NCBI GenBank assembly: GCA_964187785.1
Contig: OZ076409.1
Span: forward strand, 71,364,001-71,428,000
Direction of reading: 5' to 3'
Source of the DNA: Amphiscolops sp. MND2022
Lineage: Eukaryota
Length of the DNA: 64,000 nucleotides
Both the position numbers and the translations under genes were made by a program. The notes under the pieces are model-generated. The model saw nothing but the letters and a program-made list of their open reading frames with translations, was not told the DNA's origin and did not search any database. This document shows positions 1,289 through 61,485 of this stretch, in pieces. Positions within the stretch are counted from its first letter, which is position 1. Each line of letters opens with the position of its first letter.

Positions 1289-1312
1289 TTCTGTCTAGCA
1301 TTTTTCAAACTG

Positions 1313-10392: not shown

Positions 10393-11662
10393 GTGGCTGG
10401 GAATTTTTTTTCTGCTCAATTCTTTGCCACTTGGGGGAGGGGCCCCTGGTGGCTGTTACCCAAATTACATACCTACCCAAAGCGTCCGCTCTGAGTACGA
10501 TCTCGAAAACCACCCTTTAGATTTTCCTGAAACTTTGCATACAGGCCTAGAATCAAATCCTAAGAACTATTTCCTACTGGCGTTTTTCTGAATTTTTTCA
10601 AAAAGTTGGTCAAAAATGCAACAAAAGTTGCCAATGGACATAAAAAACGCAACTTTTCGACTTTGAGGGCCTATAACTTTTTCCAGGGTGCCCGGAGCGG
10701 TTCGCACGTGGACCACAACATTGCTCAGCATTGTCGGAGCAGTGCTTGGACAAATTTTGGTTCGAATCGGATGAAAATTGACTGAGAAATTAACGCAAAA
10801 TTCGGTGCATTTGTTGCAAATACCAGTCTATCTCTGCCATTTTCGCCCAAAATTTTTCCCAGAGCCTTTATAGGAGGCAACCCCTGCCCGAATTTCTGCC
10901 GAGCAAACCCATTTGGCCCTAAATACGGAGTTTCAGCATTCTAGGATTCCCGGGCGAAAAGTTGTGGGACTTAGAAAATTTTCAAAAAAACGCAAAAATT
11001 GTAAAAAGTAACTTCTGGCCTCCCAAAGTCAAGAAACTTTCACACAACTAGTATTGCAAGTGAATGCATGTGGAAAGCACTCGGATAGACGAGAAAAATG
11101 AGCTATAGAACGACTCTGTAGCTTAATTTGACGTTGACTTATGACATTTTGAGTGTGAGCATCCTATATGATTTCAATGTCAAAAATGAGATTTTGTAAG
11201 TCATGTCTCATCAAAAACTCATCGGAATACGTTCAATCATCCCCATAGCTGTTCAATCGCCGTGGCTCAGTACCGCAACGCCATTTAATGTCTTTGGACC
11301 CATTTTGAAAATTTTCGTTACCGTCTTATTCGTCCGATATCACGAAACAGTTGAGTACATTCCATCTCCCACTTGGGGGGAGATGAGAATGTACTCGCCA
11401 AAGACCTGATACAATGGCCCATATTGGTTTTTATTTGACCTTTCCCACGATATTGCACACGGATAGCTGTGTTGGGTAAAAGTTTTCCTCTGCACCATGT
11501 CTCCAGAAGCTAAACCACTTCTTTAGCTTACCACTTCTACTCAAACATCACTAACGTCAACGCCACATACTCGCATCAACGCCCACCGTCTGTGGGCATG
11601 CCGAGGCATGCCCTTCGACGACGTATGCTAAATAGCGCCACCTGGCGCCAAATTTTAACTAG
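10393..11662 (+). mobile_element. Cassette 4, family A (1270 bp)
   Basis: Close paralogue of cassette 3. Type-1 hairpin at 11353-11396. Confidence 0.85.
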
Positions 11663-13051
11663 GTGGTTGGGGCGGACCCCAGAACGCACAAGGAGGCGCG
11701 GGGAGGGTCCTGCGCCGACGTAGAATAATTTCATATAATACTAGTATCCTACATGGGTGTTTTAGAGGCGATTTTGGAATCTAACCGTAGGATTTGGATA
11801 ATTTTTTGCATGCGGCCATAACTCAAAATTCTAAGAACTTTTTCCTACTGTCATTTTCCACGCAAATTGTTTTTTGTTGACTTATGGCCGAAAAACCGGA
11901 AATAACGTCCTTTTTAGACGTTATATCCGAAGTGTCGTCATAACTTTTTTCCAGGGCATGCTAGCGTTCTCGTTCACTTTTACACTTAGTTGCAGCATCT
12001 CAAAATACAACTGGTGGAAAATTTTGGTTGCATTCGGATCACCCCCCACCGAGATAGAAGGGTTCCCCCCTCCAGTTTTACCCCCCAAATTTGCAAAATA
12101 GCCAATTTTGAGCATGAAGCCGAGGATTTAGCGTACCCATACCCTCCTGATGTTTTGTTGTACGTATTGGGGTCAATCTGACGACATGTGTGGTTTTCAC
12201 CCCCAACCCCCCCTTGGACCGGAAATGACACTTTTTTGTGTTTTTTGGCAGAATTTAGCCTTTTTCATTATTAGGCAGTCGTTTTAGGGACTCCTAGCAG
12301 GATATCGAAATTGAAATACAACCTGATCACAACCCAGTGACAACATAGTGGCCACTTGGAGGTATCATCATGACCGGAAGTGGGGTCAACCCCCCTTTTT
12401 GTGACCGCTTTTTGACCTTGTGCACCAAAATGCCAACATCTTGAGGCCTAATGAGGCATTCAAATCTGTACCAAGATAAAATGTTAGACAACCGAAGTCC
12501 CGGAAGATCTTTAGCATATACCGGAAGTTACCCCCCATGACCGGAAGTTACCCAATGTGACCGGAAATGGTCCAAAAATTAATGTAAAGTTGAATTTTTC
12601 ACTATTTCAAGACCACTTAATTGAAACTTTTCAATCTATAAACTAGCGTACTGGCTTGTTTTGCTGAATTTATGGAAATTGATGAGCTCTATCGCTCCCG
12701 ATAGCCTTCTAAGTTGACCTTGCGTCAACTTTGTAGGCTATCGATAAAGAAAAATGAACAACAAAGTACATTGTTGCTCTCGTTTTTTTCCCGTTGTTTT
12801 TCCTCAAACATTCTTGAGACATATACATGGCCGTTAGTTGAAATCAATATTTAGCCCATGTTATAGCTGGAGCAGCGAAGCGTTACACAGACTAGTGTGG
12901 TTTTGAAATCACACTATTTAAATTAACAACTGACCGTCTTAGTCAACTCCACACATTCATACCAACGCCCACCGTCTGTGGGCATGCCGAGGCATGCCCT
13001 TCGACGACGTATGACGAATCCACTCCAACGACACCCGCAGTCCTCAGCTAG
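11663..13051 (+). mobile_element. Cassette 5, family C (1389 bp)
   Basis: Paralogue of cassette 8. Type-2 hairpin at 12699-12743. Confidence 0.85.
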
Positions 13052-14454
13052 GTGGTCGGGTATTTTTTTTACTCGTATATGACGTTTGCGAGGCTTTGGG
13101 GAGGGCCCCGTGCCGAGCCTGTTCCGAAAATCGCCACATGTAGAAATCTGGCACTAAAATGTGAGATCTCAAAAAGTAGCCGTTAGAATTCTCTGAAATT
13201 TTGCATGTGGCTCAGAATTAATGAGTAATGAAAAAGTGTAGAAGTGAAGGTCGCTGAAAAAATGGTCCTTGTTGCACTTTTTGCGCAATTTTTGTCTGAT
13301 TGTTGCGTTTTTTATGTCATTTTCGACTTTTCAAGCAAAAAACTCATGAATGCTTTGTTCCTAGCGCATCAAGTGTGGAGCACGAAAAGTTGCAGCATCT
13401 CCAAGTGCGTATGCTGAGAAAATTTGGTTGCCGTCGGGTTACCCCCCACAGAGCTAGAGGGGTACTTCCGGTTATTTTTGACCCCCTAAATTAGGTAAAC
13501 TGCTAATTTTTGTAATGAAGCCGTAGATTTAGCGTGTCCGCACCCTGCTGAAGTTTTGTTAAACATTTTGAGAGAGACCCAATGACATGTGTTCAGTTCA
13601 CCCCCCATCACCCCCTTGACCGGAAATGAACGTTTTTGTGCACTTTCAGACCGGATGTCTCCATTTTCACCGGTAAGGAGGCCTTGTACGACCAACTAGC
13701 AGGATATCAAAATTGAAGTATAACCCAGGGTCAACTTAATGACCACGTGTTGTCCAGTCATGGGTTTTACTATGACCGGAAATGGGCTCAAAACCCCACT
13801 TTTAGTAGTTTTTTATCAATTTGAATAGTGTTTGGTCCACATTCAGGTGGCGTAAGTCACTTGCACCAGTGTGAGTATTAACTGCATGTTCCCTGCGTAG
13901 ACGTAACTGACACTGTCAGATACCGGAAGTAACCCCATGTGGCCGGAAGTGGTCAATTTTGACCGGAAATGGTCCAAAAAGTAGCGTAAAAGCAGTTTTT
14001 CACTACTTTTTAGGGACAATTTTTTTACTTTTTTTCAATCTGAATGCCTCCTTTATACTACCAAAGCTAACATCGTTGCCTGTTTTGCTAAAGATTTGGC
14101 AATTGATTACCTTTATCAACCCCGATAGCCTTCCAAGTTGACCTTGGGTCAATCTTGAAGGCTATCTATACTTAAAACAAAAAATCGAGATAAGTTGTTT
14201 TCTCCATTACGTTGATAATTTTTCCTTGATGTCAAGTTGTTAAGCAAAGACTTTTAAGCAAATTAATGATCTGAATCTTGTTCAGAGGTCTCACCCTGAA
14301 GAAGATTATTTGAGATTGAAGTAAACTGAGAATGAGGTTAGTATTTGTCAACATCAGAGAATCTTATCAACGCCCACCGTCTGTGGGCATGCCGAGGCAT
14401 GCCCTTCGACGACGTATGCCAAATAGCGCCACAGGGCGCCCACACTTTTGCTAG
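13052..14454 (+). mobile_element. Cassette 6, family D (1403 bp)
   Basis: Paralogue of cassette 7. Type-2 hairpin at 14124-14166. Confidence 0.85.
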
Positions 14455-15843
14455 GTGGTCGGGTATTTTTTTTTACTCGTAGATGGCGTTTGCGAGGCTT
14501 TGGGGAGGGCCCCGTGCCGAGCCTGTACCGAAATTTACCACATACCAGAAGTGTCCGATTTAATCGAGATCTCAAAAACTAACCGTTAGAATTCTCTGAA
14601 ATTTTGCATGTGGCCCCTAATCAATGAGTAATGAAAAAGTGTAGAAGTGACAGTTGCTGAAAAACTTGTCTTTGTTGCACTTTTTGCGCAATTTTTGTCG
14701 CATTGTTGCGTTTTTTATGTCATTTTCGACTTTTCAAGCAAAAAACTCATAGATGCTTTGTTCCTAGCGTATCAAGTGTGGAGCACGAAAAGTTGCAGCA
14801 TCTTCCATTACGTATGCTGAGAAAATTTGGTTGCCCTCGGATTACCCCCCACAGAGATAGAGGGGTGCATCCGGGTATTTTTGACCCCTAAATTTGGGAA
14901 ATTGCTAATTTTCGTAATAAAGCCGTAGATTTAGCGCGTGCACACCCTGCTGAAGATTTGTTAGGCATTTTGAGATAGATCCGATGACATGCGTTGAGTT
15001 CACCCCCATCACCCCCTTGACCGGAAATGAACGTTTTTGTGCACTTTCAGACCGGAAGTCTCCATTTTCACCGGTAAGGAGGCATTGTACGAGCAACTAG
15101 CAGGATATCAAAAGTGAAGTATAACCTGGGATCAACTCAATGACCACGTGTTGTCCAGTCTTGGGTTTCGCTATGACCGGAAATGGGCTTAAAACCCCCT
15201 TTGGTGGTATTTTTAGCAATTTTCCTTGTGCTTGGTCCACATTCAAGTTGCGTAAGTCAGTTGAACCAGTGAGAGCATAAAATATATATTCACTGCGTAG
15301 TCGTAACTGACACTGCCAGATACCGGAAGTAACCCCCTGTGACCGGAAGAGGTCAATTTTGACCGGAAATGGTCCAAAAAGTAGCGTAAATGCAGTTTTC
15401 AATGCTTTTTAAGGTCAAATTATTAGTATTTTTCAATTTGAATGCTTTTTTCCACGCAAAAAGCTAACATCGTTGCATGTTTTGCTGAAGATCGGAAAAG
15501 TGATCACCATTATCACCCCCGATAGCCTTTCAAGTTGACCTTTGGTCAATCTTGAAGGCTATCTGTTCTGAAAACGAAAAATAGTGGAATTTTGTTTCCT
15601 CCTTTCTCTTGATATTTTTCCTTCAAGTCAATTTGTCAAAAGAAAGACATTTGTTCAACTAAGTGTTCTGAAACCTGTCCAGAGGTGTCACCCGGACGAA
15701 TACCATTTCAAGCTGAAGTACACAAATCAGGGTAGTATTAGACATCACACACTCCTACCAACTCCCACCGTCTGTGGGCATGCCGAGGCATGCCTTTCGA
15801 CGACGTATGCCAAATAGCGCTACAGGGCGCCCACATTTGCTAG
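14455..15843 (+). mobile_element. Cassette 7, family D (1389 bp)
   Basis: Paralogue of cassette 6. Type-2 hairpin at 15521-15563. Confidence 0.85.
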
Positions 15844-17234
15844 GTGGTCGGGGCGGTCCCCAGAACGCACATGGAGGCGCGGGGAGGGTCCTGCGCCGAC
15901 GTAGAATAATTTCATAAAATACTATTATCCTACATGGGTGTTTTGGAAGCGATTTTGGAACCTACCCGTCAGATTTGGATAATTTTTTGCATGCAGCCAT
16001 AACTCGAAATTCTAAGAACTTTTTCTTTCTGTCATTTTCCCCGCAAATTGTTTTTTGTTGACTTATGGCCGAAAAACCGGAAATAACGTCCTTTTTAGAC
16101 GTTATATCCGAAGTGTCGTCATAACTTTTTTCCAGGGCATGCTAGCGTTCTCCTTCACTTTTACACTTTGTTTTAGCATCTCAAAATACAACTGGTGGAA
16201 AATTTTGGTTGCATTCGGATCACCCCCCACCGAGATAGAAGGGTTCCCCCCTCCAGTTTTACCCCCCAAAATTGAGAAAATACCAATTTTGAGCATGAAG
16301 CCGTGGATTTAGCGAATCCTCACCCCCCTGATGTTTTGTCGGACATGTTAGGGTCAATCTGGTGACATGTGTGGTTTTCACCCCCAACCCCCCCTGGGAC
16401 CGGAAATGACACTTTTTTGTGTTTTTTGACAAAAATGAGCCTTTTTGATTAGTAGGGAGTCGTTTTTGGGCCTCCTAGCAGGATATCGAAGTTGAAATAC
16501 AACTTGATCACAACCCAGTGACAACATGTTGGCCAGTTGCAGGTACCATCATGACCGGAAGTGGGGTCAAACCCCCCTTTTTGTGACCGCTTTTTGACCT
16601 TGTGCACCAAAATGCCAACAACTTGAGGCCTAATGACGCATTCAAATCTGTACAAAGATAGAACGTTAGACAACGGAAGTCCCGCAAGCTCTTTAGCATA
16701 TACCGGACGTCACCCCCCATGACCGGAAGTTGTCCAATATGACCGGAAATGGTCCAAAAATTCATGTAAAATTAACTTTTTCACTTATTGAAGACCACTT
16801 CGTTGAACATTTTCAATCCCAAAACTAGCGTACTAGCTGGTGCCGTTGAATTTATGGAAATTGAGGAGCTTTATCACCCCCGATAGCCTTCGAAGTTGAC
16901 CTTGCGTCAACTTTGGAGGCTATCGATTCTGAAAATGAACAACAAAGTACTTTGTTGCTCTCGTTTTTTTTTCCGTTTTTTTCCTCAAATATTGTTGAGA
17001 CATACACATGGCCGTTAGTTAAAATCAATATTTTAGCCCATGTTATAGCGTGAGTAGCGAAGCGTTACACAGGCTGGTGTGGTTTTGAACTGTAATTATT
17101 TTAAAATAAAAAAAGACCCTCTTAGTCAACTCCACACATTCATACCAACGCCCACCGTCTGTGGGCATGCCGAGGCATGCCCTTCGACGACGTATGACGA
17201 ATCCATTCCAACGACACCCGCAGTCCTCAGCTAG
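15844..17234 (+). mobile_element. Cassette 8, family C (1391 bp)
   Basis: Paralogue of cassette 5. Type-2 hairpin at 16881-16925. Confidence 0.85.
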
Positions 17235-19919
17235 GTGGTCGGGGCCCGATGCCCTTCAAAAAACCGTTGCGCGTCGACGGGAAGGGTCCTGTCCGCGCCC
17301 GTGGGAAAAGAACAATATATACGATGTCAAAAAGCCACTTTTTTCAACGATCTCGTAAACTAACCGTAGGATCCTGCTCAAATTTGGCATGTGGCTTGCA
17401 AATAGGCTGAAATGAAAAAGTGTAGGAGGTAATTTTTCTGTAGTATCATTTTGTGTTGACTTATGAGCTAAAAACTACCCGTTCGACATCTTTTTTTCAC
17501 TTTTTTCAAATTTTAGAGCTCATATCTCGTTTTCAGGTGCTCGGAGCGGTTCGCATGTGGACGTCAATATTGCTCAGCAGTGCTAGAGGAGTGCGTAGAC
17601 AAATTTTTGTCCAATTCGGATAAAAATGGACTGAGTAATAACCGATTTTTTGACGAATTTTTTCGAAAATTTTTGAAATCCCAGTCTATCTCTGCCGTTT
17701 TTTGCCCAGATTTTTTTCCAGACACTCTCCTAAAGGCCTCCCCTGGCCGGTTTACCTCCCAGAAAAACCATTTGGCCCTTTTGCCGCAGTTTCAGCGTTC
17801 CAGGATTCCCCGGGTAAAAGTAAAATGTCTTAGAATTTTTTCGAAAAATTTTCAAAAAATTTTTTTTTTCAACTTCAGGCCTCCCAAAGTCGAGGAACTT
17901 CCACACAACTAGTATTGCAAGTGAATGCATGTGGAAAGTTCTCGGATAGACGAGAAAAATGAGCTATTGTACGACCCTGTAGCTTAATCTGACGTTGACT
18001 TATGACATTTTTAGTGTGAGCTTGAATAGGGGTTGAAGTGTCAAATAAAATTAAGTGTCTTTTCAGAGCCTATTACATCCTCCCACGTTATCGTAGCGGT
18101 TCGCATGTGGACGTCAATATTGCTTAGCAGTCTTAGGGGAGTTCGTATACAAATTTTCGTCCAGATCGGATAAAAATTGACTGAGTAATAACCGATTTTT
18201 TGACGAATGTTTTCGAAAATTTTTGAAATCCCAGTCTATCTCTGCCGTTTTTTGCCCAGATTTTTTTCCAGACACTCTCCTAAAGGCCTCCCCTGGCCGG
18301 TTTACCTCCCAGAAAAACCATTTGGCCCTTTTGCCGCAGTTTCAGCGTTCCAGCACTCCCCAGTAAAAAGATAAAAGACTTAGAATATTTTCAAAAATTT
18401 TCAAATTTTTTTCTCTCAACTTCAGGCCTCCCAAAGTCAAGAAACGTCCACACAACTAGGATTGCAAGTGAATGCATGTGGAAAGTACTTGGATAGACGA
18501 GAAAAATGAGCTATAGAACGACTCTCTAGCTTAACCTGACGTTGACTTATGACATTTTTAGTGTGAGCTTGAATAGGGGTTGAAGTGTCAAATAAAATTA
18601 AGTGTCTTTTCAGAGCCTATTACTTCCTCCCACGTTATCGTAGCGACTCGCATGTGAGAATCAATATCGCTCAGCGGTTCAAGAGGAAGGCATAGACAAA
18701 GTCTCGTCCAAATCGGATCAAAATTGATTGAGTAAAAACCGATTTTTTGAGCAATTTTTTTCGGAAATTTTCGAAGTTTCAATATATCTCTGCCGTTTTT
18801 GCCCAGATTTTTTTCCAGACACTCTCCTAAAGGCCTCCCCTGGCCGGTTTACCTCCCAGAAAAACCATTTGGCTCTTTTGCCGCAGTTTCAGCGTTCCAG
18901 CATTCCCCGGTAAAAAGATAAATGACTTAGAATATTTTCAAAAATTTTCAAAATTTTTTTCTCTCAACTTCAGGCCTCCCAAAGTCAAGAAACGTCCACA
19001 CAACTAGGATTGCAAGTGAATGCATGTGGAAAGTACTTGGATAGACGAGAAAAATGAGCTATAGAACGACTCTCTAGCTTAACCTGACGTTGACTTATGA
19101 CATTTTTAGTGTGAGCTTGAACAGGGGTTGAAGTGTCAAACAAAATATTAAAATGGAAGCTAATTAAAATGGAAGCTAAGTCTAATCGGAATACGTTTAG
19201 TCAATCCCAGAGCTGTTCAATTGCCTTTGTTTAGTGCAACAAAACTATTTGAGGTCATTTGACTCATTTTTATTATGTTTTGAAACCGTTTTATCCATTC
19301 AATAGCATAAAACAGTTGAGTTCATTCCATCTCCCTTTCGGGGGAGATGAGAATGTACTCGCCAAAGACAAGGTGCAAGGGCCCCTAATTGTATTCTGCT
19401 ACTTTTTCTGTGCAACTGCCAACGGACAACATGACTTCGTGTGACTTTTTTCTTTGCAATGTGATTGGACATGTTGAACGTTCAGTCCTTACCTTTCCAC
19501 AGCATTTAATTTGATGGGTTGGGGCCCGTTGTCCTGTAAATGACATCTGCGCGTCTACAGCGAGAGTTCTGGCCTCGCTCTTAGCAGAAGACAATGTGAC
19601 GTAGTCAAATCGCCAATTTTTAACGATCGCGGCGACTGTACGAAGAATCGTACTTGAGTTTCTTTGGTTACTGTGAGATTTACGATATCAAAAAAATTAG
19701 GACATGCCATTTTTTTCAAACCAATTTTTGGTCATAAATTCTTCCAAAGAAACAGAACAACGCTAAATCTCATTTATTTACATCGAATGAACCATCCAGT
19801 AGTGTTTCAAAATCATTTTGCCAACACGAATCAGTTTCAAGGTGAGAAGCCAACATAAACTTTATAGTTTAAAGTTTTTCATATTAACACCTCGTGTACT
19901 CCACTGCTTTCACCGCTAG
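17235..19919 (+). mobile_element. Cassette 9, family E (2685 bp), A-related body triplicated, alternative 3' end
   Basis: Type-1 hairpin at 19318-19360. Ends CACCGCTAG without the GGCATGCC module. Confidence 0.8.
17546..19140. repeat. Internal ~548-bp tandem repeat, three copies
   Basis: GCGGTTCGCATGTG-like anchor at 17546, 18096 and 18643. Confidence 0.9.
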
Positions 19920-21902
19920 GTGGGCGGGGGTAATTCCCCTTCAAAAAATTCGGCCGGCGGGTTGGGTCCTGCCGGACGTCAAATAGTGTGAAACATCCAG
20001 TAGGAAACGGCGACATAAATCAGCGATTTTAAAATTTAACCGTTAGAATTCGGACTTGGAGTGCATGCGGCCCCAAAATGCCCATACGAATCGAAGTTCC
20101 TGCTGACGTTAAGCGATAAAAACACTTTATAAAAAGTTATGGCCCATTTTACGTTCACTTAGAGAAGTAAAATGAGGAAAATTTCAACAAAGTTGCTGAT
20201 AACTCAAAATACATTAATTTTTGGACTTTGACTGTGAAACAAGCTTGGAACCTTCATTTCGTGGCTGTGGCATTGCACTGAACACAAAAGCTGTAAAGTT
20301 TTCACATTTTTTGAAAATTCGACATTTTTGAAATTTTTTTCACTACTATCAGTACCCCATATGTCAAAAACACCTCAGAAAAAAATTTTTATTTGCTTTA
20401 AATTGGAAACCTTGGTATCCATGGTTTCTGTCGGAACCTACTCGCAGCCAAACACCCAACAGTTTGCATCCAATGTGAAAATAAAAATTTTTCGGGGTCA
20501 TAAGCGTTTCACAAGGATTTCTCAACTTAGTATTAATTTACAAAATGGTCATTTTGAACACAATATTTTCATCGAGGCTTGTCGGCTATAGCCTTAATGT
20601 TCTAGAACGGTCCCACTAGCAACGTAGGAACCATTTATAGTAATAGAAAGTTTTAAAAAAATATTTTCACCCGGTCTTCAGTCATTTTTCAGTCATTCGG
20701 AACTTAACTTAGAAAAATTTCGACCAAAATACCCAGTTTTTGTCAGGTCGAAAACTCAAATTCAGATTTTTAGGCAAAATTATTAACTCTGACGTAACCC
20801 ATGGGGCCCATGATACTCAAAACAACGATTGACACTGGTATCAATGGCTCCAATAACATATGAGTCGCGATAAGACGTTATTTTGAGCAATACGTCTCAA
20901 TTGAGGTAAAGATCTCGCAAGCCAGCGATCACAGTGAAATGTGATTTCATCAAAAATATACCCATTTTCGTCAATCATTATGTGCACAGAATGCGTAGGG
21001 TGCGTTTCAGCACTATAATGAGGTTTTTGAAGGCATCGAGTTGCTCAAGGGGTGGTATGAGACTATTTTGTCCCATATACTACTGTATTTTCCAAAATTT
21101 TTAGCCCAATATCTGGAAATACAAACTTGACAAAATACTTTCAACTACTTTATTCAAAGGTTACAATATAGATGAACACTGGGGTTGATCAGAAACTTTC
21201 ATCTCTTTCGTTTTCCGAAATATTTCCCTTCGCATGTGTTACATTCGTAGCAGAAAAAAAATCGAAACTGAAAAATACGCAATTTTGCTAATATAGAATC
21301 GCAATGATTGTGCCTAAAAACTCTTTAAACACTTCTAACGCGACCTTACGCACTCAAAATGATCGAAAATGCTATTCACAATGGTGACAAGTGCTCTTTC
21401 TACGATCCTGACTGGACAAGGTTTGCATATTTTTCAAGTACCTGTCATCTAAATCTTGTGATAGCCTTTTCAGTTGGCCTTGTGTCAACTTGGGAAGGCT
21501 ATCACATCAAAAAACCATCAACAAAAATAAATCTTGTTTATTGGATCTTACAGTCGATACTTTTTTTCGTGATTCTATACTACCGTTAGTATATTTCATC
21601 AGGTCACCTTACGATTGCATTCAGTCTTTGATAAAAACCTATGAACTCAAAGTCACATTTATATATTTTTTTGCCAAAAAAAAACATCAAAAATATCTAA
21701 AATATATGAAATACAGTCTTTAACATTTTTACATTTCAAGTTTCTGCCGTTATTAGGCCCATCAACTTCCTACAGCCACGCTCTCTGTCATTAGTACAAC
21801 GCCACATAGTGTTGCGACGTGCACAGTCTGTGGGCATGCCGAGGCATGCCCTTCGACGACGTATGCCGAATACCGCGGGCCTACGCCCGCGCTCCCGGCT
21901 AG
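19920..21902 (+). mobile_element. Cassette 10, family F (1983 bp)
   Basis: Colinear with cassettes 13, 14, 21, 23 and 27. Type-2 hairpin at 21458-21505. Confidence 0.87.
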
Positions 21903-23877
21903 GTGCGGGGGGGTAACCCCTACAAAGATATTGGAGGATTCGGGTAGGGTCCTGAATCCGAGTTCAGTGCTGCCAGCTATCGTTAAGGGATTTTAGAAAA
22001 TTTTGCCGATCTCGTGATCTAACCGTAGGATTTTAAAGTTGGAGCGGCCCCCACCAGATTTTCCAAAGTTATTCGCCCCCCACCGGGTTCCAGCGTGATT
22101 GAAATATTTTGACGGGGTACACGGGCGACCGTTAGGGGTCATTTTGGGGGTAAAATTTATATCCGGTCGCATAACTTTTTTCCTGTTGGTTTAAAACTTT
22201 GGGACCCTGCTAAAAGTTTCTTGACCGTGTTGCAGTGGCTCCGGATGTCCAAACCAAATTTTTCTATCTTGAAGCTATCTCCAAGTACCCCCCCGCCCAA
22301 ACCGTTATTTTTCCGGAAACGCAGGTTTTTGACCCGGAAGGAGTCGTCTGAGCGCGGGGTTGTTAGGTGATGTATTGGGGACGGCCTTGAGACGAAGCGG
22401 GGGACATGTAGTTTGCCGACCCCAGTTTACCCCCCGGACAGGAAATGACCGTTATTTGAGCGGGAAAAATGCCCCCCTCCACGTTTTACCGCTATTTCCG
22501 GTGTGAAGGAGTGGGAGTAGCGCGTCGGGTGCCATATATCAAAAGTAGGTTTAGACAAGGACCTGTCGGAAACATGTGGTTTGAGACCCCCTGGTCCAAC
22601 CCGTTAGCAGGAAATGGGGCTTCCGCCTCCTTTTATTACTGCTAAAACCGTAAAATGGGCATTGAGGGGTAAATATCTCGTGAACGCGTGGAGCTACAGT
22701 GTCCATCACTACTACAAGGTTTCATACCCATGATATGGTGCCTTCAGGGGGGCAAACAGATTTCCGCTATCTATCACCGTTACCGACTTGGCCCCCCAGC
22801 CTAACCGCTAAGTGACCGGAAATGTCATTTTTTGAGCCCAAAGGGTCGGTCCCAGCCAGAGAACGTTAGGTAACTTATTGTAGTACTCATTGAGACGAGT
22901 TGGGGGACATAGTTTCAGTCACCCCCCGTTACCCCTTGGGACCGGAAATGACCGTTATGTGGGTAAATTTGCAAGTTTTATACTTTTTCAAGTGTATTTA
23001 GGTGCGGAAGGAGTGGTAATAGGTGCTTGAACACTATATGAAGGAAGGGAGGACGTGAGGCGAGCTTTCGAAAATAACCGTTATGTTGACCCCGAAGTCC
23101 CCCTGGTACCGGAAGTGACCCGTAATGGTCAAATGTCGTGTTTTTAGGGTACAAATGTTTGGTGTTTTATGGATAACAGTGCCTATTAGGTGTTTCGACG
23201 GTCTGCAGTCGTGAACATAGTCATGAAACCTTGTGGGGGGTAACGGTATATAGCACCGGAAGTCCAAACCGTTGGAGACTGGATAAGTTTTTTGGTTTTA
23301 AAATGTCTTTCGGCCTACTTTTGTCGACTATTATGGACTATTTTTCGAAAATAAAGTTTTTCCATATAGTTTCAGAGACTCCGAAACCTCAACCAACATA
23401 ACCGTTACTTTATGATAGCCTTTCAAGTTGGCCTGGTGTCAACTTGGAAGGGCTATCCTTCAAAAATCATTAATCCAGTGTGTTTTTGAGTATGCTTGTT
23501 TTACTTTAGAATCAATTAGAGCTTCAAGAAAAGATTGCCAACGACAAAAACTATGTCGTGATGATTCCGTTATTAGAATAATAGTTACCAAAATGTTGAT
23601 AAAGTTGATTTTTTACATTTCAAATATGTCCTAAATGCCAGAAAACCTCTTTACCAAACAAATGGTATTGACTGAATTGTATATAGCAGCTAATAAAAGT
23701 TCAAATTGAATATTACGTTTCATTATGCAAGCTGAAATGTCATATTATAGTTTAATTACCGTCAACGCCACATACTTTACATCAACGCCCACCGTCCGTA
23801 GGCATGCCGAGGCATGCCTTTCGACGACGTATACCAAATTCCACCCACACAACAACCCCGAGCGCGGTAGCAGCTAG
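21903..23877 (+). mobile_element. Cassette 11, family G (1975 bp)
   Basis: Starts GTGC. Paralogue of cassette 16. Type-2 hairpin at 23414-23457. Confidence 0.85.
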
Positions 23878-26668
23878 GTGGCGGGGGGCTGTCCCCAATA
23901 GAATATAGTGAGGTAGGGTAGGGTTCCCTACCGAACATTCAGTACTGAAAGACTCTTGTAGTATGAAAATTTTTCGATGTTTTGAGACCGATTTCGGATT
24001 CCACCCGTCAGAAGTTTATGATTTTTTGGCCCCCACCCAGATTTTGGGCACTGATCGCCCCCCACCAGGTTCCATACCCGTGGTTTCGTTGTGACGGGTA
24101 CACGAGCGACCGTTAGGGGTCAATCAGGGGGTAAAATTTATAAAAGTGTGAATAACTTTTCCCCCCGTCGTTTTAGCAGGTCCGGTCACTAGTAAAGGTT
24201 TGTTGGGCATCATGCAGTGGGTACGGGGGGCCAAACAAAAATTTTCTATCTTGCACCGTTACGGACTTGGCCCCCCGCCCAAACCGCTATTTTACCGGAA
24301 ATTGCACTTTTTGACCGGGAAGGAGTCGTCTGAGCGCGGAGTCATTTGGTAATGTTTTGTAGAGCATCTGGAGACGTGGTGGGGGACATGTAGTTTGCCG
24401 ACCCCAGTTTACCCCTCGGACGGGAAATGACCGTTATGTGAGTTTCAAAAATGCCCCCCTCCAATTTTCCCCGCAATTTCCGGTGTGAAGGAGTCGGAAT
24501 AGCGTGTCGAGTGCTATATATCAAAAGTAGCTTTAAACAAGGACCTATCAGAAACATGTGGTTTGGGACCCTTTGAACGGACCCGTTAGCCGGAAATAGG
24601 GTGACCGCCTCCTTTTTTTGGTGGTAAAACCGTAAAACGGGCATTAAAGTGTAATTATCTCGTGAACGCGTGGAGCAATCGTGTCCATCACTCCTACAAG
24701 GTTTCATACCCATGACATGGTGCCTTCAGGGGGGCAAACAGATCAGCGCTATCTATCACCGTTACGGACTTTGCCCCCCAGCCTAACCGCTATATTACCG
24801 GAAATTGCCCTTTTTGACCGGGAAGGAGTCGTCTGAGAGTGGAGTCGTTAAGTAATGTTTTGTAGAGCATCTAGAGACGTGTTGGGGGACATGAAGTTTG
24901 CCGACCCCGGTTTACCCCTCGGACGGGAAATTACCGTTATGTGAGTTTTAAAATTGACCCCCTTCAACTTTCCCCGTTATTTCCGATGTGAAGGAGTGAG
25001 GGTAGCGCGTCGGGTGTCATATATCAAAAGTAGGTTAAGACAAGGACCAACCGGGAACATGTTGTTTGGGACCCTCTGGCCCAACCCGTTAGCCGTTATA
25101 AGGGTGATCGCCTCCTTTTTTTACTGCTAAAACCGGAAAACGGGCATTGAGGGGTAAATATCTCGTGAACGCGTGGAGCAATCGTGTCCATCACTACTAC
25201 AAGGTTTCATACCCATGATACGGTGCCTTCAGGGGGGAAAACAGATTACCGCTATATATCACCGTTACGGACTTGGCCCCCCAGCCTAACCGCTATGTGA
25301 CCGGAAATGTCATTTTTTGAGCCAAAAGGGTTGGTCCCAGCGTGGGAACGTCAGGTAACTTTATGTAGAACTTAATGAGACGAGTTGGGGGATATAGTTT
25401 TAGTCACCCCCCGTTGACCCGTTGGACCGGAAACGACCGTTATGTAGTGAAAAATGTTATTTTTATACTTTTTGAAGGCCATTTAGGGCAGGAAGTATCG
25501 GTAATATGTCTTTGGACAGTATACAATGAAAGTTTTGGTGTGAAACGAGCAATCTGAAATAACCGTTATTATGATTCGGAAGTCACACTAACAGCGAAAA
25601 TGACCGTTATGTAGTGAAAATTTTTTTCACAGTTTTTTTTATTTTCGATAGGTCCTTCAAGCCAGGAAGTAGCTGTATTAGGTCTTTGGTCACTTTATGA
25701 TGATTGTGGTGTTGTGAGATGACCGTACGAACTTGACCGTTATAATGCCCCTGAAGTTGCGGCGGCACGAGAAATTTCAGAAAGTTTGTCTTTTCTGTGT
25801 TTTGTTGGAATAAACATGTAATTTCATCAAACCAAAGTGCATTCAGGGTGTCAGAAAGCTTCAAGAAAAGAATTTGACAGGAAACATGAGGTGAGAAATA
25901 GGAAAATGCCACGGAAATCCAACCCGTTGGGAAGTAAAGATAATAAATTGGTTTGGAAGTGCCAATCGACGTGTAATTGCGGATCATAGCTACGATATTG
26001 TCTCTTTTGTTTCTTTTCGAAGACTTTGAACATTTTCACTTTATCAGCTTGAAGTTTCGACTCCATTAACTCAATAACCGTTACAATATGATAGCCCTCA
26101 AGTTGACCTTGTGTCAACTTGAAAGGGCTATCCTTTCACAACTGCGCAGCGACAGTGTGATTGAGTGTTTTTGTTATTATCCATAGCCAATTTGAACTTC
26201 AACAAAAGATTAACCATAGTTAAAAAATTTCATATGATTCTTTTAAAAGGATAAGTAAGAAACAAATGTTTGACAAAAAACTTTCAACCTTTAATTTGTG
26301 GACTGAATATCAGGAAAACCATGTCTCCTAACGTTGTTGGATGAAATTCAACATGATTCTTTTAATAGGATAACAAAGTTTGACAACATATTTTTTTATA
26401 TTCTTTCGTTGGTGCTCTACATTTTAGGAAAACGAATTTTCCAACAAATATTGTTGGCTGATGCCTGTTCATAGTGGGTTGAAAATTTCACCAACTGTAA
26501 TGCTTTTTATCAAAGGTGAAACCGCTCCTTACCGTCGCATAATGTAATTCAAGCCGACGCCCACATGCCAACATCAACGCCCACCGTCCGTAGGCATGCC
26601 GAGGCATGCCTTTCGACGACGTATGCCAAATCACGCCCCTGCGAGGTCACTAAAGCGGTAGCGGCTAG
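23878..26668 (+). mobile_element. Cassette 12, family H (2791 bp), G-related with an internal ~500-bp duplication
   Basis: GGAAGGAGTCGTCTGAG at ~24319 and ~24820. Type-2 hairpin at 26090-26132. Confidence 0.85.
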
Positions 26669-28655
26669 GTGGGCGGGGGTAATTCCCCAACAAAAAAATC
26701 GGCCGGCGGGTCGGGTCCTGCCGGCCGTCCAAAATCAAAATCCTCCTAGTAGAAAACGGCATGTCAAACGAGCTATTTTTTTATTTAACCATACGAATTT
26801 CACCATTTTTTGCATGCGGCCCTGAAATGGCCATACGAGACGAAGTTCCTGCTGACGTTTTGCGATGTAAATGTTTTATAAAAAGTTATGGCCGATTTGT
26901 CATTCACCTAGAAGGGTAAAATGAGGAAAATTTTAACAAAGTCGCTGATAACTCAAAATGTGGTAATTTTTGGACTTTGACTGTGAAACAAGCTTGGAAC
27001 CTTCATTTCGTGGCTGGGGCATTGGACTGAACACAAAAGATGTAAAGTTTTTACGTTTTTTGAAAATTCGACATTTTTGAAATTTTTTTCACTACTATCA
27101 GTACCCCATATGTCAAAAACACCTCAGAAAAATATTTTTATTTGCTTTAAATTGGAAACCTTGGTATCCATGGTTTCTGTCGGAACCTACTCGCAGCCAA
27201 ACACCCAACAGTTTGCATCCAATGTGAAAATAAAAATTTTTTCGGGGTCATAAGCGTTTCACAAGGATTTCTCAACTTAGTATTAATTTACAAAATGGTC
27301 ATTTTGAACATAATATTTTCATCGAGGCTTGTCGGCTATAGCCTTAATGTTCTAGAACGGTCCCACTGGCAACGTAGCAACCATTTATAGTAATATAAAA
27401 GGTTAAAAAATTTTTTTCACCCGGTCTTCAGTCATTTTTCAGACATTCGGAACATAACTTAGAAAATTTTCGACCCAAATACCCATTTTTTGTCAGGTCG
27501 AAAATTAAAATTCAGCTATTAAAGCAAAATTATTTACTCTGACGTAACCAGTGGGGCCCATGATACTCAAAAACACCATTGGCACTGGTACCAATGGCTC
27601 CAATAACATATGAGTCGCGATAAGACGTTATTTTGAGCAATACGTCTCAATTGAGGTAAAGATCTCGCAAGCCAGCGATCACTGTGAAATGTAAATTCAT
27701 TAAAAATTTACTCATTTTCGTCAATCACCATGTGCACAGAGTGCGTAGGGTGAGTTCCAGCACTATAATGAGGTTTTTGAAGGCATCGGGTTGCTCAAGG
27801 GGTGGTATGAGACATTTTTTTCCTATATACTACTGTATTTTCCAATATTTTTAGCCCAATATCTGGAAATACAAACTTGACAAAATACTTTCAACTACTT
27901 TATTCAAAGGTTACAATATAGATGAACACTGTGGTTGATCAGAAACTTTCATCTCTTTCGTTTTCCGAAATATTTCCCTTCACATGTGTTATATTTTTAG
28001 CAGAATAAAAAATCGAAACTGAAATATACGCTATTTTGCTAATATAGAATCGCAATGATTGTGCCTAAAAACTCTTTAAACACTTCTAACGCAACCTTAC
28101 GCACCCGAAATGATCGAAAATGCTATTCACAATTGTGACATGTGCTCTTTCTACGATCCTGGCTGGACAAGGTTTGCATATTTTTCAAGTACCTGTCTGC
28201 TGAATCTTGTGATAGCCTTTTAAGTTGGCCTTGTGTCAACTTGGGAAGGCTATCACTTCAAACAACCATCAACAAAAATAATTTTTGTTTATTGGATATT
28301 ACAGTTGATTCCTTTTTTCGTGATTCTATATTACCGTTAGTATATTCCATGAGGTCACCTTACGATTGCATTGAGACTTTGATAAAAACCTATGAACTCA
28401 AAGTCACATTTATATATTTTTTTGCCCAAAAAAATCATCAAAAACATCTATAATATATAAAATAGAGTCTTTAACATTTTTACGTTTCAAGTTTCTGCCG
28501 TTATTAAGCCAATCAACTTCCTACAGCCACGCTCTCTGTCATTCTGTACAACGCCACATAGTGTTGCGACGTGCACGGTCTGTGGGCATGCCGAGGCATG
28601 CCCTTCGACGACGTATGCCGAATACCGCGGGCCTACGCCCGCGCTCCCCGGCTAG
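26669..28655 (+). mobile_element. Cassette 13, family F (1987 bp)
   Basis: Type-2 hairpin at 28209-28256, standard termini. Confidence 0.87.
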
Positions 28656-30638
28656 GTGGGCGGGGGTAATTCCCCAACAAAAATTACGGCCGGCGGGTTG
28701 GGTCCTGCCGGACGTTCAAATAGCGCGAAGCATCTAGTAGAAAACAAGGAGTCCTGAAACAGCGATTTTAAAATTGAACCGTTAGAATTTGGTTTTAGAT
28801 TGCATGCGGCCCTAAAATCCCCATACGAATGGAAGTTCCTGCTGGCGTTAAGCGATTGAAATAATATATAAAAAGTTATGGCCCATTTTTGGGTCACCGA
28901 GAAGGTCAAAATGAAGAAAATTTTAACTAAGTTGCTGATAACTCAAAATGTGTTAATTTTTGGACTTTGACTGTGAAACAAGCTTGGAACCTTCATTTCG
29001 TGGCTGTGGCATTGCACTGAACACAAAAGATGTAAAGTTTTCACATTTTTTGAAAATTCGACATTTTTGAATTTTTTTTCACTACTATCAGTACACTATA
29101 TGTCAAAAACACCTCTGAAAAATTTTTTTATTTGCTTAAATTTAGAAACCTCGGTATCCATGGTTTCCGTCAGTACCTACTCGCTGCCAAACACTCAACA
29201 GTTTGCATCCAATGTGAAAATAAAATTTTTTTCGAAGTCTTAGGTGTTTCACAAGGATTTCTCAACTTAGTATCAATTTACAAATTGGTCATTTTGAACA
29301 CATTATTTTCATCGAAGCGTGTCATATACCGCCCTAATGCTCACGAACGGGCCTACTGGCAACGTTGGAACCATTCATAGTAATAAAAAGTTTTAAAAAA
29401 TTTTTTTCACCCCGTCTTCAGTCATTTTACACACTTTCGGAACTTAACTTAGAAAAATTTCAACCAAAAACCCATTTTTTGTCAAGTCGAAAATTCAAAT
29501 TCAGCTTTTTAAGCAAAATAAACAAATCTGACATAACCAGTGGGGCCCATGAAACTCAAAACCACGATTGAGACTGGTATCAATGGCTCCAATAACCTAT
29601 GAGTCGCGATAAGACGTTATTTTGAGCAAAACATCTCATTTGAGGTAAACATCTCGCAAGCCAGCGATCACTGTGAAATGTGATTTCATCAAAAATTTAC
29701 TCTTTTTTGTCAATCACTATGTGCACAGAATGCGTACGGTGCGTTTCAGCACTATAATGAGGTTTTTGAAGGCATCGAGTTGCTCAAGGGGTGGTATGAG
29801 ACATTTTTGTCCCATATACTACTGTAGTTTCCAAAATTTTTACCCCAAAATCTGGAAATACAAACTTGACAAAATACTTTCAACTACTTTATTCAAAGGT
29901 TACAAGATAGATGAACACTGTGGTTGATAAGAAACTTTCATCTCTTTCGTTTTCGGAAATATTTCCGTTTTCATGTTACATTCATAGCAGAAAAAAAATC
30001 GAAACTGAAAAATACGCTATTTTGCTGATATAGAATCGCAATGATTGTGCCTAAAAACTCTTTAAATACTTCTAACGCAACCTTACGCACCCAAAATGAT
30101 CGAAAATGCTATTCACAATGGTGACATGTGCTCTTTCTACGATCCTGGCTGGACAAGGTTTGCATATTTTTCAAGTACCTGTCAGCTAAATCTTGTGATA
30201 GCCTTTTCAGTTGGCCTTGTGTCAACTTGGGAAGGCTATCACATCAAAAAACCATCAACAAAAATAATTTTTGTTTATTGGATCTTACAGTCGATACTTT
30301 TTTCGTGATTCTATACTACCGTTAGTATATTTCATCAGGTCACCTTACAATTGCATTCAGTCTTTGATAAAAACCTATGAACTCAAAGTCACATTTATAT
30401 ATTTTTTTGCCAGAAAATAACATCAAAAATATCTAAAATATATAAAATAGAGTCTTTAACATTTTTACGTTTCAAGTTTTTGCCGTTATTAGGCCAATCA
30501 ACGTCCTAGAGCCACATCCTGCCACATACTGTACAACGCCACATAGTGTTGCGACGTGCAGTCTGTGGGCATGCCGAGGCATGCCCTTCGACGACGTATG
30601 CCGAATACCGCGGGCCTACGCCCGCGCTCCCCGGCTAG
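28656..30638 (+). mobile_element. Cassette 14, family F (1983 bp)
   Basis: Type-2 hairpin at 30195-30242, standard termini. Confidence 0.87.
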
Positions 30639-33600
30639 GTGGGCGGGGGTAATTCCCCAACAAAAAAATCGGCCGGCGGGTCGGGTCCTGCCGGCCGTCC
30701 AAAATCAAAATTATACTAGTAGAAAACGGCCGGTCAAACGAGCTATTTTTTTATTTAACCGTTAGAATTTGGGTTTAGATTGCATGCGGCCATGAAATGG
30801 CCATACGAATCGAAGTTCCTGCTGACGTTTTGCGATTGAAACACTTTATAAAAAGTTATGGCCAATTTGTCAGTCACCTAGAAGGGCAAAATGAGGAAAA
30901 TTTTAACAAAGTCGCTGATAACTCAAAATGTGTTATTTTTTGGACTTTGACTGTGAAACAAGCTTGGAACCTTCATTTCGTGGCTGTGGCATTGCACTGA
31001 ACGCAAAAGATGTAAAGTTTTTACATTTTTTGAAAATTTGACATTTTTGAAATTTTTTTCACTACTATCAGTACCATATATGTCAAAAACACCTCAGAAA
31101 AAAAATTTTATTTGCTTTAACTTGGAAACCTTGGTATCCATGGTTTCTGTCGGAACCTACTCGCAACCAAACAACCAACAGTTTGCATCCAATGTGAAAA
31201 TAAAAAATTTTTCTGGGTCATAAGCGTTTCACAAGGATTTCTCAACTTAGTATTGATTTACAAAATGGTCATTTTGAACACAATATTTTCATCGAGGCTT
31301 GTCGGCTATAGCCTTAATGTTCTAGAACGGTCCCACTGGCAACGTAGGAACCATTTATAGTAATAGAAAGTTTAAAAAATATATTATCACCCTGTCTTCA
31401 GTCATTTTTCTGTCATTCGGAACTTAACTTAGAAAAATTTCGACCAAAATACCCATTTTTTGACAGATCGAAAATTCAAATTCAACTTTTTAAGCAAAAT
31501 TATTAACTCTGACGTAACCAGTGGGGCTCATGATACTCAAAAACACGATTGGGACTGGTACCAATGGCTCCAATATCATATGAGCCGCGATAAGACGTTA
31601 TTTTGAGCAATACGTCTCAATTGAGGGAAACATCTCGCAAGCCTGTGATCACAGTTAAAAGTGATTTCGTCAAAAATTTACTCTTTTTCGTCAATCACTA
31701 TGTACACAGAGTGCGTAGGGTGAGTTTCAGCACTATAATGCGGTTTTTGAAGGAATCGGTCTGCTCAAGGGGTGGTATGAGACATTTTTTTTGCATGTAG
31801 TACTATATTTCTCAAAACTTTTAGCCCATTATCTCGAAAAGCTCACTTCGCAAATTACTTTCAGTTACTCTATTCGAAGCTTAGAATATATATGAACACT
31901 GTGGTTGATCAGAAACTCTTGACTATTTTGTTTTTGGAAAAAAACTGCCTTGCATGTGTTACATTAGTGGCAGGAAAAATACCAGTAGCTCCAAAAATCA
32001 CAATTTTGGACGGACAGACCTGCAATGATGCAAAGCAAAAACGTTTCAACAACTTCTGGCGCCACTTTTTTTACCCAAGAGGTTCGAAATTACTATTAAC
32101 AATGCTGACATTCGCTATAAATAAGATCGAGGTCAATTTATTAACACTTAGGTTATACATTTATATCTGAGAAACCATTCTTTGTCAGGTCGCAATTTTA
32201 AATTTAGTTTGGGAAGCAATACTTTTCACTCTGAAGCAAACCGTTGGGCCCAAATTACTCAAAAACTACAAAAAGACTGTCACCATATGCCCTAATAGCA
32301 TATGAGATTCGACCGTTCGTTTTTAACACAAAAACTCTCATCCGAAGTAAACATGTTGAAAGCCTTGAATCACCGTGAGAAATGATTTCATCAAAAAATA
32401 TTCCTTTTTCGTCAATCTTTATCTACACAGAACACGTTGTGTCATTTTCAGCCGTGAAATGAGCTTCTACCGTAATATGGGTTGCTCAAGGTGTTGTATA
32501 AGTCAAAAACTTCCTCTTTTCTACTATCTTCTTCAAATATTTCAACCCTTTGTCACAAGAAGTTAATATTCAAAATCTCTTTGAAATGTTTCTTTAGGTT
32601 GGGGTGAAGTGTTAGAACAATAATTATGATCGAAGAATGATAGTATTGGTGTTTGGACCATGTCCGGATGAACAAATTGCAAAATCATGAAAAATTTCTT
32701 ACCATTTTTGGTCATTTTGTCAGTACTAAAAATGTTAGCTGAAAAAGAATTTTTTTGATGGCACCATTGGATTCCTCTCAAAAAGTTAGCTATATGAACT
32801 GTGTAATAACCCCGTATCTTTTCAATTTAAATAATTTTAAAAAGCAAACTTTTTTGACTAAAATCCTAAAAATCATACCATTTCCTAAAAAATTTCAAAT
32901 GCCCCCCATTTGACGTATAAGAATAGCACAGAAAACTATCACATACCGATCGACTCTACTTCCATTGTAAATTACCAGAATTTTGTTTAGAACAATTTTT
33001 GACGGATGCAAAAAAAATTTAAACCCTCCAAAAAAGGGCCAAAATTACACGAAAAAATTGACCTTAAAATTTTAAAATGTCGAAAAATCATCAAAACCAC
33101 AGCTTCTTGGGGTTCTATCAACTCCACGTGGTCCACAGAGTATGTTAAAACAAGTTTTACCCGTATTTGAGCAATATGTGAAAAAGCCGACTTTTTTGGG
33201 AATGAAAAACATACCATTTCCTAAAAAATTTCAAACGCACCCCATTTGACGTATAAGAATAGCACAGAAAACTATCACATACCGATCGACTCTACTTCCA
33301 TTGTAGGTTACCAGAATCTTGTTTAGAACAATTGTTGACGGATGCAAAAAAAATTAAACCCTCCAAAAATGGGCCAAAATTACACGAAAAAATTGACCTT
33401 AAATTTTTAAAATGTCAAAAAATCATCAAAACCACAGCTTCTTGGGGTTCTATCAACTCCACGTGGTCCACAGAGTATGCTAAAACAGGTTTTACCTGTT
33501 TCTGAGCTATATGTGAAAAAACCGACATTTTGGGGAAGAAAAACATACCATTTCCTAAAAAATTTCAAATGCACGCCATTTGCCGTATGAGAATAGCACA

Positions 33601-35399
33601 GAAAACTATCACATACCGATCAACTCTACTTCTATTGTAGATTATCAGATTCTTGTTTAGAACAAATTTTTATGGATATAAAAAATTTTTAAACCCTCCA
33701 AAAATGAGCCAAAATAACACGAAAAAATGGACCCTAAATTTTTAAAATGTCAAAAAATTATCCAAACCACAGCTTCTTGGGGTTCTATCAGCTCCACGTG
33801 GTCCACAGAGTATGCTAAAACAGGTTTTGCCCGTTTTTGAGCAGTATATGAAAAAGCCGACATTTTTGGGGAAGAAAAACATACCATTTCCTAAATAATT
33901 TCAAATGCAGGCAATTTGCCGTATGAGAGTAGCACAGAAAACTATCACACACCGATCAACTCTACTTCTTTTGTAGATTATCAGAATTATGTTTAGAGTA
34001 AAGTTTTATGGATATGAAAAATTTTTATACCCTCCAAAAATGGGCCAAAATGACACGAAAAAATTGACCTCAAATTTTTAAAATGTCAAAAAATTATCCA
34101 AACCACAGCGTCTTGGCGTTCTATCAACTCCAAATGACCTTCAGAGTATACCAAACCAGGTATTGCCAATCTTTTGAGCAATATTTAAAAACACCGACAA
34201 TTTGGCAAGAACACCATAATATGTTCCATATAAGAAGTGAATCATTCCACATATATACCCGGTCTAATATTTTCAAATTAGCGATAACATTTATACATGA
34301 TGGTTTTTGAAAGTGAGCTTCATAAGAGGTTGAGATGTAATAATACGTAAATGGACCCTAAGTTTCATTGAAATCTCAATTGAATACGTCCAATCAACTT
34401 CAATCCTAACTATTATATATCAAAAAACACTTGAGTACATTCCATCTCCCCATCGGGGGAGATGAGAATGTACTTTTCAAAAGCCAAAAACTTCGAATTT
34501 TAAATCTTTTGTAACATTGTATGTAACTGTTGAAACGATGAACGAATAAAAATGCTTCTAGTACCTTCATCAATTTTTGCTTCAGCTCCTATTTCTGCAG
34601 AACAAAACCAAAAGACACACTTACAGCAGTTAAGTTCGATTGTATAACTCAGTGAATAAAGGTATGACTGAGGAAGTTCACAAGTTGTTTCAAAAGTTTC
34701 CGGCCTTCCAAAATCATGAAACGTCCACACAACCAAGATAGCAAGTGAAAGAATGCTGAATGCACCTTATTAGATGAGATAAATAATGTGTGGAACTTGC
34801 CATTATCTCAAGATGACGTTGATTTATGATCTTTTCAGGATAGTTCGATATGTGACCACAATAGTGGAAAACTTATTACTATTTGAAGAACACCGTGGAA
34901 AGCGTTCAGAAAGGACAGTATATTTGTTTCGAGCATGCATGCGTGTGTTCCTTTGGTGACGTTAGCTTAGTGTACATGACGGAGGTATTCGAGAGATTAT
35001 GATAGAGTTTACTCACAAGTCTTTGTTTTTTTAAACTTTCTATGCCGTTGAGTACATTCGTAAGGTACATCCATCCCCTTCTCTGGGAATGTACGTTTGC
35101 CAAATGACTGTCATCCAAAATTCGTAATCCGGACGAGTTTAACTACATAAACATGTGATGAGCGTTTTCAATTCACAACCGAATAACATTTTTTTCTCGA
35201 AAATGATGATGGTTTTGATTTTGATGTCTTCTACTTTTATCATCATGCAAACGACCTTACCATGTCTCTCTTCTGTCGTCATTTGTACAACGCCACATAG
35301 CGTTCCGACGCCCACCGTCTGTGGGCATGCCGAGGCATGCCCTTCGACGACGTATGCCAAATGAGCCATACCCGCACTCTGGAGTGCGGTAGCAGCTAG
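30639..35399 (+). mobile_element. Cassette 15, family I (4761 bp), F-type head with a different 3' body
   Basis: F-like for about 1.1 kb. Type-1 hairpin at 34433-34474. Paralogue of cassette 22. Confidence 0.85.
32874..34210. repeat. Internal ~335-bp tandem repeat, four copies
   Basis: CATACCATTTCCTAAA at 32874, 33210, 33544 and 33880. Confidence 0.9.
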
Positions 35400-61400: not shown

Positions 61401-61485
61401 CAACGCCCACCGTCCGTAGGCATGCCGAGGCATGCCTTTCGACGACACGCGCCGGAAACAATCTAACGGCGCCACCCGCTTCTGG
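58411..61485 (+). mobile_element. Cassette 26, family M (3075 bp)
   Basis: Ends CTGG. Type-4 hairpin at 60820-60859. Confidence 0.85.

Follow-up and report, generated by a model that had tools for sequence, protein, structure and literature searches.

The window analysed here, a stretch of 64,000 nucleotides (G000 C1:71,364,001-71,428,000, forward strand) in a genome of 1.07 Gb, is almost free of long ORFs. Positions 1..810 (+) hold the C-terminal end of a 2367-codon RepHel frame that starts at C1:71357707 and lies inside a 21.3-kb element ending at position 5477; internal tandem repeats are seen in the 3' region of this autonomous element (1240-3860). The remainder of the window (5478..64000, +) is a mixed head-to-tail array of 28 cassettes of 1.07-4.9 kb that are joined at CTRG|GTGS, and is itself a section of a larger cluster at about C1:70.5-76.5 Mb. 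One of the cassettes is a non-autonomous element of family G (21903..23877, +), 1975 bp in size and of the form 5'-GTG...CTAG-3'. The junction CTAG|GTGC at 21899..21906 (+) joins an upstream F-type 3' end to the start of the G element at its 5' terminus, and from the sequence the nick site is predicted between 21902 and 21903. A small first hairpin (GGGG-GTAA-CCCC, 21909..21920, +) precedes the main stem-loop at 21934..21961 (+), which has the arms GGATTC/GAATCC (21936-21959), an apex made of a G.T pair and GG/CC, the loop TAGGGT and a stem base closed by tandem G.A/G.A mismatches (21934-21935 with 21960-21961). The element's 3' end (23801..23877, +) consists of a conserved subterminal hairpin, GGCATGCC-GA-GGCATGCC (23801-23818), a variable terminal segment and CTAG at 23874-23877; this end is the likely terminator. 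Most families have such a subterminal 3' hairpin, and the strength of the terminal hairpin is variable.

Stem-loops recognised from sequence and fold are located near the starts of the other families, all on the + strand: A at 5511..5538, C at 11695..11716, E at 17269..17298, H at 23912..23932 (a variant with a 7-nt loop), M at 55778..55809, and F at 26700..26727, for which the first 68 nt have a z-score of -3.7. The arms listed in the preliminary description were all found in the sequence, GGATTC-GGGTAGGGTCC-T-GAATCC at 21936-21959, CGGCCGGC...GCCGGCCG at 26700-26727 and those of H, C, M, A and E, and its statement that every cassette carries the stem-loop holds for 28 of 28 cassettes between 5478 and 64000 with a relaxed loop. 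The first G of the core is at position 38-48 in 26 cassettes and at 57 in 2. Matches to the strict core GGGDHGGGNCC number 28 on the + strand of the window and 0 on the - strand, with 0.19 expected per strand; 27 of these 28 cores mark cassette starts and one is an orphan (19516). Of the 168 strict cores in a contiguous stretch of 454 kb, 167 are located 35-56 nt 3' of a CTRG|GTGS junction, and a further 12 junctions comprise 6 longer-loop variants and 6 members of one core-less lineage. Copies of the core-less lineage (L005:6643, L006:4966, L007:3398 and 3546, L026:417, L044 and L058:8995) start with GTGGA[G/T]G and have another, long T/A-rich hairpin, yet are resident in the arrays.

For the fold tests, 82 arm types (344 copies) were reduced to 22 hand-chosen lineage representatives. 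Seven positions of the alignment, G12-14, G17-19 and C22, are invariant across the 22 lineages, and the apex has the form G-GG-[DHGGGN]-CC-Y (21942..21953, +, in family G). The closing pair is intact in 343 of the 344 copies and is G-C in 13 lineages and G.T in 9, with no A.C. The spacing of the stem-loop from the DNA end falls inside a 12-nt band in 335 of the 344 copies. The small hairpin directly after the start, noted earlier for several families, reaches -3 kcal/mol or better in only 11 of the 22 lineages and is optional among them. We dropped a conserved G-quadruplex as a candidate, since inspection of the sequences revealed four G-tracts only in some lineages.

The limits of the elements were defined from their flanks. 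Elements start with GTG[G/C], and among 167 3' ends in the 454 kb, 161 are CTAG and 6 CTGG. Genome-wide, the common 3' end is followed by GTG in 1669 cases, by GT-H in 25, A in 29, T in 10, and C or G-V in none; in 14 of the 15 A/T flanks that were read the second base is T. Family F starts are preceded by CTAG in 794 cases, BG in 11 and H in 5, all 11 of the BG-preceded starts adjoin CTGG-type ends, and the first G was replaced by A once. These counts define the element as GTG...CTRG, with insertion 5' of DT. No D-T-H flank was found for the common F 3' end.

We also extracted 29 loci around free or dispersed ends and picked 3 more by their 5' flank. Host-flanked starts were present in 9 of the 29 loci and in L100, and the flanks at these ten starts, which had not been selected for, were CTAG in 5 cases and CTTG, CTCG, CCAG, TTCA and GTCC in one each, the frequency of CTAG being 0.0022. 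Insertion sites include CTAG^GT, CTAG^AT, CTTG^AT and similar sequences. Free copies prefer CTAG^DT targets, and the target thus mimics the element's own end-to-start junction. Free flanks have no repeat other than the GT common to the target and the 5' end, and a target duplication was absent from the one insertion with a known empty site, L063/L102 (C1:72.444-72.446 Mb), where an F copy lies antisense in another F start, between the small hairpin and the main stem-loop. None of the extracted loci proved to be an empty site for L100. Inverted subterminal repeats of at least 11 nt were seen in 0 of 132 distinct end pairs (mean 5.9 versus 6.1 for random pairs). By eye, one free copy at CTAG^AT (L255 / L282, C2:16.308-16.310 Mb) sits in tRNA-derived-looking sequence, which a second 3' flank (L308) resembles; ARAGORN predicted no tRNA gene at this target.

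The cassettes are non-autonomous partners of RepHel (HUH-Y2 + PIF1) transposons. The 5' 1059 nt of family G are 93.9% identical to the 5' end of an element on contig C1041 that encodes a 2254-aa RepHel, and M copies have 5' 907 nt and 3' 86 nt in common, at about 96%, with a 14,083-bp cassette at C1:71601601 that has a family M start and holds a 2526-aa frame. In this protein, Pfam Helitron_like_N (E 5e-8) and PIF1 (E 2e-6) scored above the cut-off and GIY-YIG was sub-threshold. The structure model of the Rep region (pLDDT 84.5) had a sole fold match at E<=0.001, Helraiser bound to its LTS (E 3.2e-6, TM 0.36, 12% identity), followed by parvoviral Rep nucleases as next best. Among 60 homologues, H-x-H is invariant and YxxxY at least 90% conserved. 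The genome contains 132 Rep matches, about 70 of them in frames of at least 2000 aa that are clustered and co-oriented, and the RepHel frames are concentrated in a few megabase blocks (C1:70.5-76.5 Mb, C2:102.0-103.9 Mb, C3:2.4-3.9 Mb, C4:77.1-77.3 Mb and C1:3.5-3.6 Mb). All listed matches in C1 70-76 Mb are on the + strand; the C2 and C3 blocks flip from - to + midway, resembling two back-to-back arrays.

The stem-loop is present at the nearest upstream junction of 33 of 41 RepHel loci, 0.9-12 kb 5' of the frame. The other 8 have no motif-bearing junction within 5-18 kb; some of these are broken, and one has a free-standing motif-bearing start. The arm type tracks the Rep clade with L153 as the single exception, which shows joint descent and not by itself co-evolution. 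L153 (C1:73.74 Mb) combines a RepHel of the GCGCGTGT clade with an upstream 5' end of the CGAGGGC type, and is either a chimera or a case of a missed junction.

To quantify the covariation of the arms, which the preliminary description had called fully covarying, we used swaps at the lineage level as the control. Own arms gave a mean of -8.2 kcal/mol against -5.2 for swapped arms in the 22 lineages, and a mean as low as the observed one arose in 0 of 100,000 permutations, whether DNA or RNA parameters were used, although such shuffle and swap counts are not strict probabilities because the lineages are related. Paired cells amounted to 70.2%, compared to 57.0% in shuffled and 37-48% in slid alignments (near-gapless, with bulges ignored), and cells changed on both sides to 42, compared to 25.6 in the shuffled data. 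The number of pairs with two-sided change, 8, was not above the control value of 7.8, and the own arm ranked first in only 9 of the 22 lineages. Covariation is thus above chance, but "fully" was an overstatement: related families have arms in common, the stems contain bulges and G.A mismatches, and in 4 of the 22 lineages the standard pairs gave no advantage over shuffled arms, with 74-225 of 300 shuffles equally stable.

A tandem 5'-GA/5'-GA mismatch beside at least 2 Watson-Crick pairs was found in 11 of the 22 lineages, including all four weak pairers. The next most frequent of 100 mismatch types occurs in 2 of 22, the reverse-strand TC/TC in 1, and the controls gave a shuffle mean of 0.34 and a swap maximum of 8. 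Tandem sheared G.A pairs stabilise folded single strands. The + strand was also lower in energy than the - strand in 20 of the 22 lineages, a result weakened by the fact that G-rich strands generally fold better than C-rich ones. Taken together, the GA/GA mismatches, the alternation of G-C with G.T and the lower energy favour a fold of the + strand, and these same features bear out the earlier proposal that selection acts on a single-stranded structure.

Two other roles for the motif were considered. The fixed core might be a double-stranded site for RepHel or a host factor, with arms that merely aid melting or cruciform extrusion; the core is indeed far more conserved than the arms, and Helraiser donors must be double-stranded (PMC5876387). 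We regard this as improbable, since the GA/GA mismatches and the alternation of G-C with G.T without A.C make sense only for one folded strand and what appears as the core is partly the GG/CC stem itself. Slightly less probable again is that the structure works as RNA, in the 5' leader or a small RNA of a transcript starting at the element end. RNA parameters give equal covariation, and tandem G.A and G.U pairs are frequent in RNA, but the spacing is fixed to the DNA end, the RepHel frame is 0.9-12 kb away and non-coding copies keep the stem-loop. A search of Rfam, named in the preliminary description as a check, gave no family match at E<=1 in the window from 5000 to 64000. From its position we infer that the structure acts as DNA.

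The reading that we favour, and hold to be likely, is that the stem-loop is a single-stranded DNA signal in the 5' end, to which RepHel binds so that it can cut at CTAG^GTG and initiate replication. The earlier guess of a rolling-circle origin gains support from the fixed distance of the motif to the 5' terminus of elements that encode RepHel or share ends with those that do. Short copies retain the ends of long ones, and the apex is invariant while the arms vary with the RepHel lineage. For Helraiser, published reports describe an essential left end, cutting of single-stranded DNA with determinants in the terminal 40 bases, and movement of the plus strand (PMC4778049, PMC5876387); by analogy, the GTG end would be the origin. 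Because Helraiser donors must be double-stranded, the fold cannot be a single-stranded origin present beforehand. Instead, local melting or unwinding by the helicase would allow the + strand to fold, and RepHel would read the G-rich apex and place the nick about 40 nt upstream of it. With the 5' G held as a phosphotyrosine, the strand would be displaced as far as the 3' hairpin-CTAG and then be joined into a target resembling the junction of the element itself. Every insertion would regenerate CTAG^GT at either side. Since resident junctions bear a stem-loop as well, they would be the best substrates, so that mixed arrays would grow one element at a time.

The composition of the arrays was examined in 178 cassettes of 76 types. 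Of their 177 neighbour pairs, 142 are distinct (mean of 154 and minimum of 141 after shuffling), no word of four cassettes occurs twice among the 178, and the order of the cassettes is close to random. A satellite-like origin of the arrays, through unequal crossing-over or as rolling-circle concatemers, with the motif as a functionless passenger, is very improbable, for although tandem Helitrons are known from plants, bats and flies (PMC5148889, PMC5876387) and same-type neighbours are somewhat enriched (18 versus a shuffled mean of 10.2 and a maximum of 20), the diversity of neighbours just described, the base-precise junctions and a covariation that spans Rep lineages 30-50% identical all speak against it.

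Junctions outnumber free ends by 1669 to 64, meaning that 96% of the counted 3' ends (1669/1733) adjoin another element. Sites with CTAGGT are common, about 1.4e5 in the genome by an estimate based on 9 occurrences in 140 kb of both strands, yet 96% of the ends are in arrays, so something beyond the six bases must favour junctions. The bias may come from the stem-loop downstream, from the 3' end upstream, from re-insertion close by or from counter-selection of dispersed copies, and the data do not separate these sources. Insertion 5' of a resident start and 3' of a resident end yield identical sequences. We prefer the downstream stem-loop, which would possibly act as a landing pad that chooses the next insertion site.

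Helitrons have been described as two groups with dinucleotide targets, and the definition of their starting end is poorly resolved. HLE1 is defined by TC...CTRR and an A^T target and HLE2 by inverted repeats, a T^T target and DUF6570 (PMC11417382, PMC4067079, PMC5148889). The array elements have the features of the RepHel superfamily, an HUH Rep with two catalytic tyrosines fused to a PIF1-like helicase and no target site duplication. They share with HLE1 and Helraiser (PDB 7lcc) the HUH motif, two tyrosines, PIF1, a 3' hairpin with CTRR and the lack of a target duplication (PMC4778049, PMC5876387, PMC11417382), as well as an ORF that reads from the 5' end to the CTAG end and non-autonomous copies that keep both ends. 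They differ in starting with GTG and not TC, in the target CTAG^DT in place of A^T, and in the conserved 5' stem-loop, the C-terminal GIY-YIG of many copies and the mixed megabase arrays. The similarity to Helraiser is E 1.3e-5 for the array RepHel versus 8.6e-193 for the HLE1 of the same genome, from which the array RepHel is also set apart in Rep and helicase trees.

With HLE2 (Helentron/Helitron2, DINE-1/HINE, FoHeli), the array elements share RepHel, an extra nuclease domain 3' of the helicase (AP-EN in HLE2) and, for some HLE2, a 5' hairpin, and with proto-Helentron the CTAG end; GIY-YIG is reported in one moss HLE2 family (PMC4067079, PMC5148889, PMC11417382). In contrast to HLE2, the array elements have neither subterminal inverted repeats (11-17 nt in HLE2) nor DUF6570, start with G and not T, have no T^T target and apparently form a separate branch in the Rep and helicase trees. 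DUF6570 was absent from the 5 clade proteins scanned and from the Pfam lists of 70 homologues. Two further systems were compared. IS91 is likewise a Y2 HUH rolling-circle element with a tetranucleotide target (CTTG/GTTC) and no target duplication (PMC5737581, PMC10288648, PMC5876387) but is bacterial and lacks a helicase, the comparison being via Pfam and fold results. Replitron is also a eukaryotic HUH transposon with oriented insertion (PMC10288648) but is Y1, without a helicase and with terminal direct repeats, unlike the array elements with Y2 and a fused helicase.

As references for the trees we used HLE1 (n=4, all from the Amphiscolops genome) and HLE2 (n=9, DUF6570 in 8 of 9); the genome also has canonical HLE1 and DUF6570-positive HLE2 families, which are dispersed. 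In quick LG+G4 trees without a root and with thin sampling, the clade was represented by 18 of 64 rows, among them proteins of Styela clava and Myxine glutinosa, and these fell on one side of a branch with SH-aLRT values of 99 for Rep and 100 for the helicase. A single HLE2 clade was not rejected, with p-AU values of 0.19 and 0.41, with references from one genome and the long-branched L222 adjoining the clade. The within-clade tree, which took in 1 of the 13 HLE1/HLE2 references owing to a motif filter and was made without L151, was used for within-clade order only. The array elements apparently form a divergent clade of Helitron-like transposons, distinct in ends, target and the habit of building arrays. 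In the literature covered, with Repbase and subscription journals outside its scope, there was no description of the clade, of elements starting with GTG, of CTAG^DT as a target or of arrays composed of several families. The elements listed as "unclassified" by HELIANO (19 genomes, Table S10) may include this clade.

More tentatively, and with a little less than even confidence, we suggest a third major Helitron-like branch (GTG...CTAG, often with GIY-YIG) whose preferred landing site is the origin of the elements themselves (CTAG^GTG with the 5' stem-loop), such that dozens of autonomous and parasitic families would build integron-like megabase arrays as a self-made safe harbour; it would represent a programmable, duplication-free, junction-targeted single-strand integrase in animals. 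An extra step of junction recognition, if true, would mean that a eukaryotic DNA transposon chooses its target in a new way, which would interest work on site-directed integration. Thousands of copies, arranged head-to-tail in rows of megabase size, begin with the stem-loop. Living side by side in one genome, the many families have in effect mutagenised the left end by nature: the apex is invariant, the arms covary and G.A mismatches occur, so that the recognition code can be tested. Such a clade would escape tools that seek TC...CTRR or inverted repeats.

All DNA evidence, on ends, stem-loop and arrays, is from one genome, and the protein has relatives in Styela clava and the hagfish Myxine glutinosa, the protein clade comprising 179 clusters at 50% identity with E<=1e-30. 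Many distant homologues each occupy a lone contig of 9-21 kb, roughly the length of one element, and these contigs could be circles or collapsed repeats. Scans of metagenomes (queries: the alignment and P0074) and of viral contigs revealed no relative, and 21 viral pattern matches were treated as chance since they had no tblastn similarity to 4 RepHel queries.

The GIY-YIG domain is C-terminal in many copies of the array RepHel and weakly similar to SLX1 (E 0.019; L021:1178-8758, L056, L042, L059). Its motif is apparently intact in several lineages, degenerate in A and missing from the G and H frames, and a role as a general targeting nuclease was dropped on these grounds. Second ORFs are located 3' of RepHel in the autonomous elements at L041 (389 aa), L057:48-1445 (466 aa) and L224:1718-3040 (441 aa), with no Pfam match at E<=0.01. 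Within the window, family E has three internal tandem repeats (17550-19120). Finally, several families have in common two alternative long internal palindromes, placed a few hundred bases 5' of the element 3' ends (19320-19365, 6447-6481 and 8605-8660; also 21460-21503 and 23413-23455), one of the type CATCTCCC..GGGAGATG with a z-score of -4.9 and the other of the type GATAGCC..AAGTTG..CAACTT..GGCTATC.
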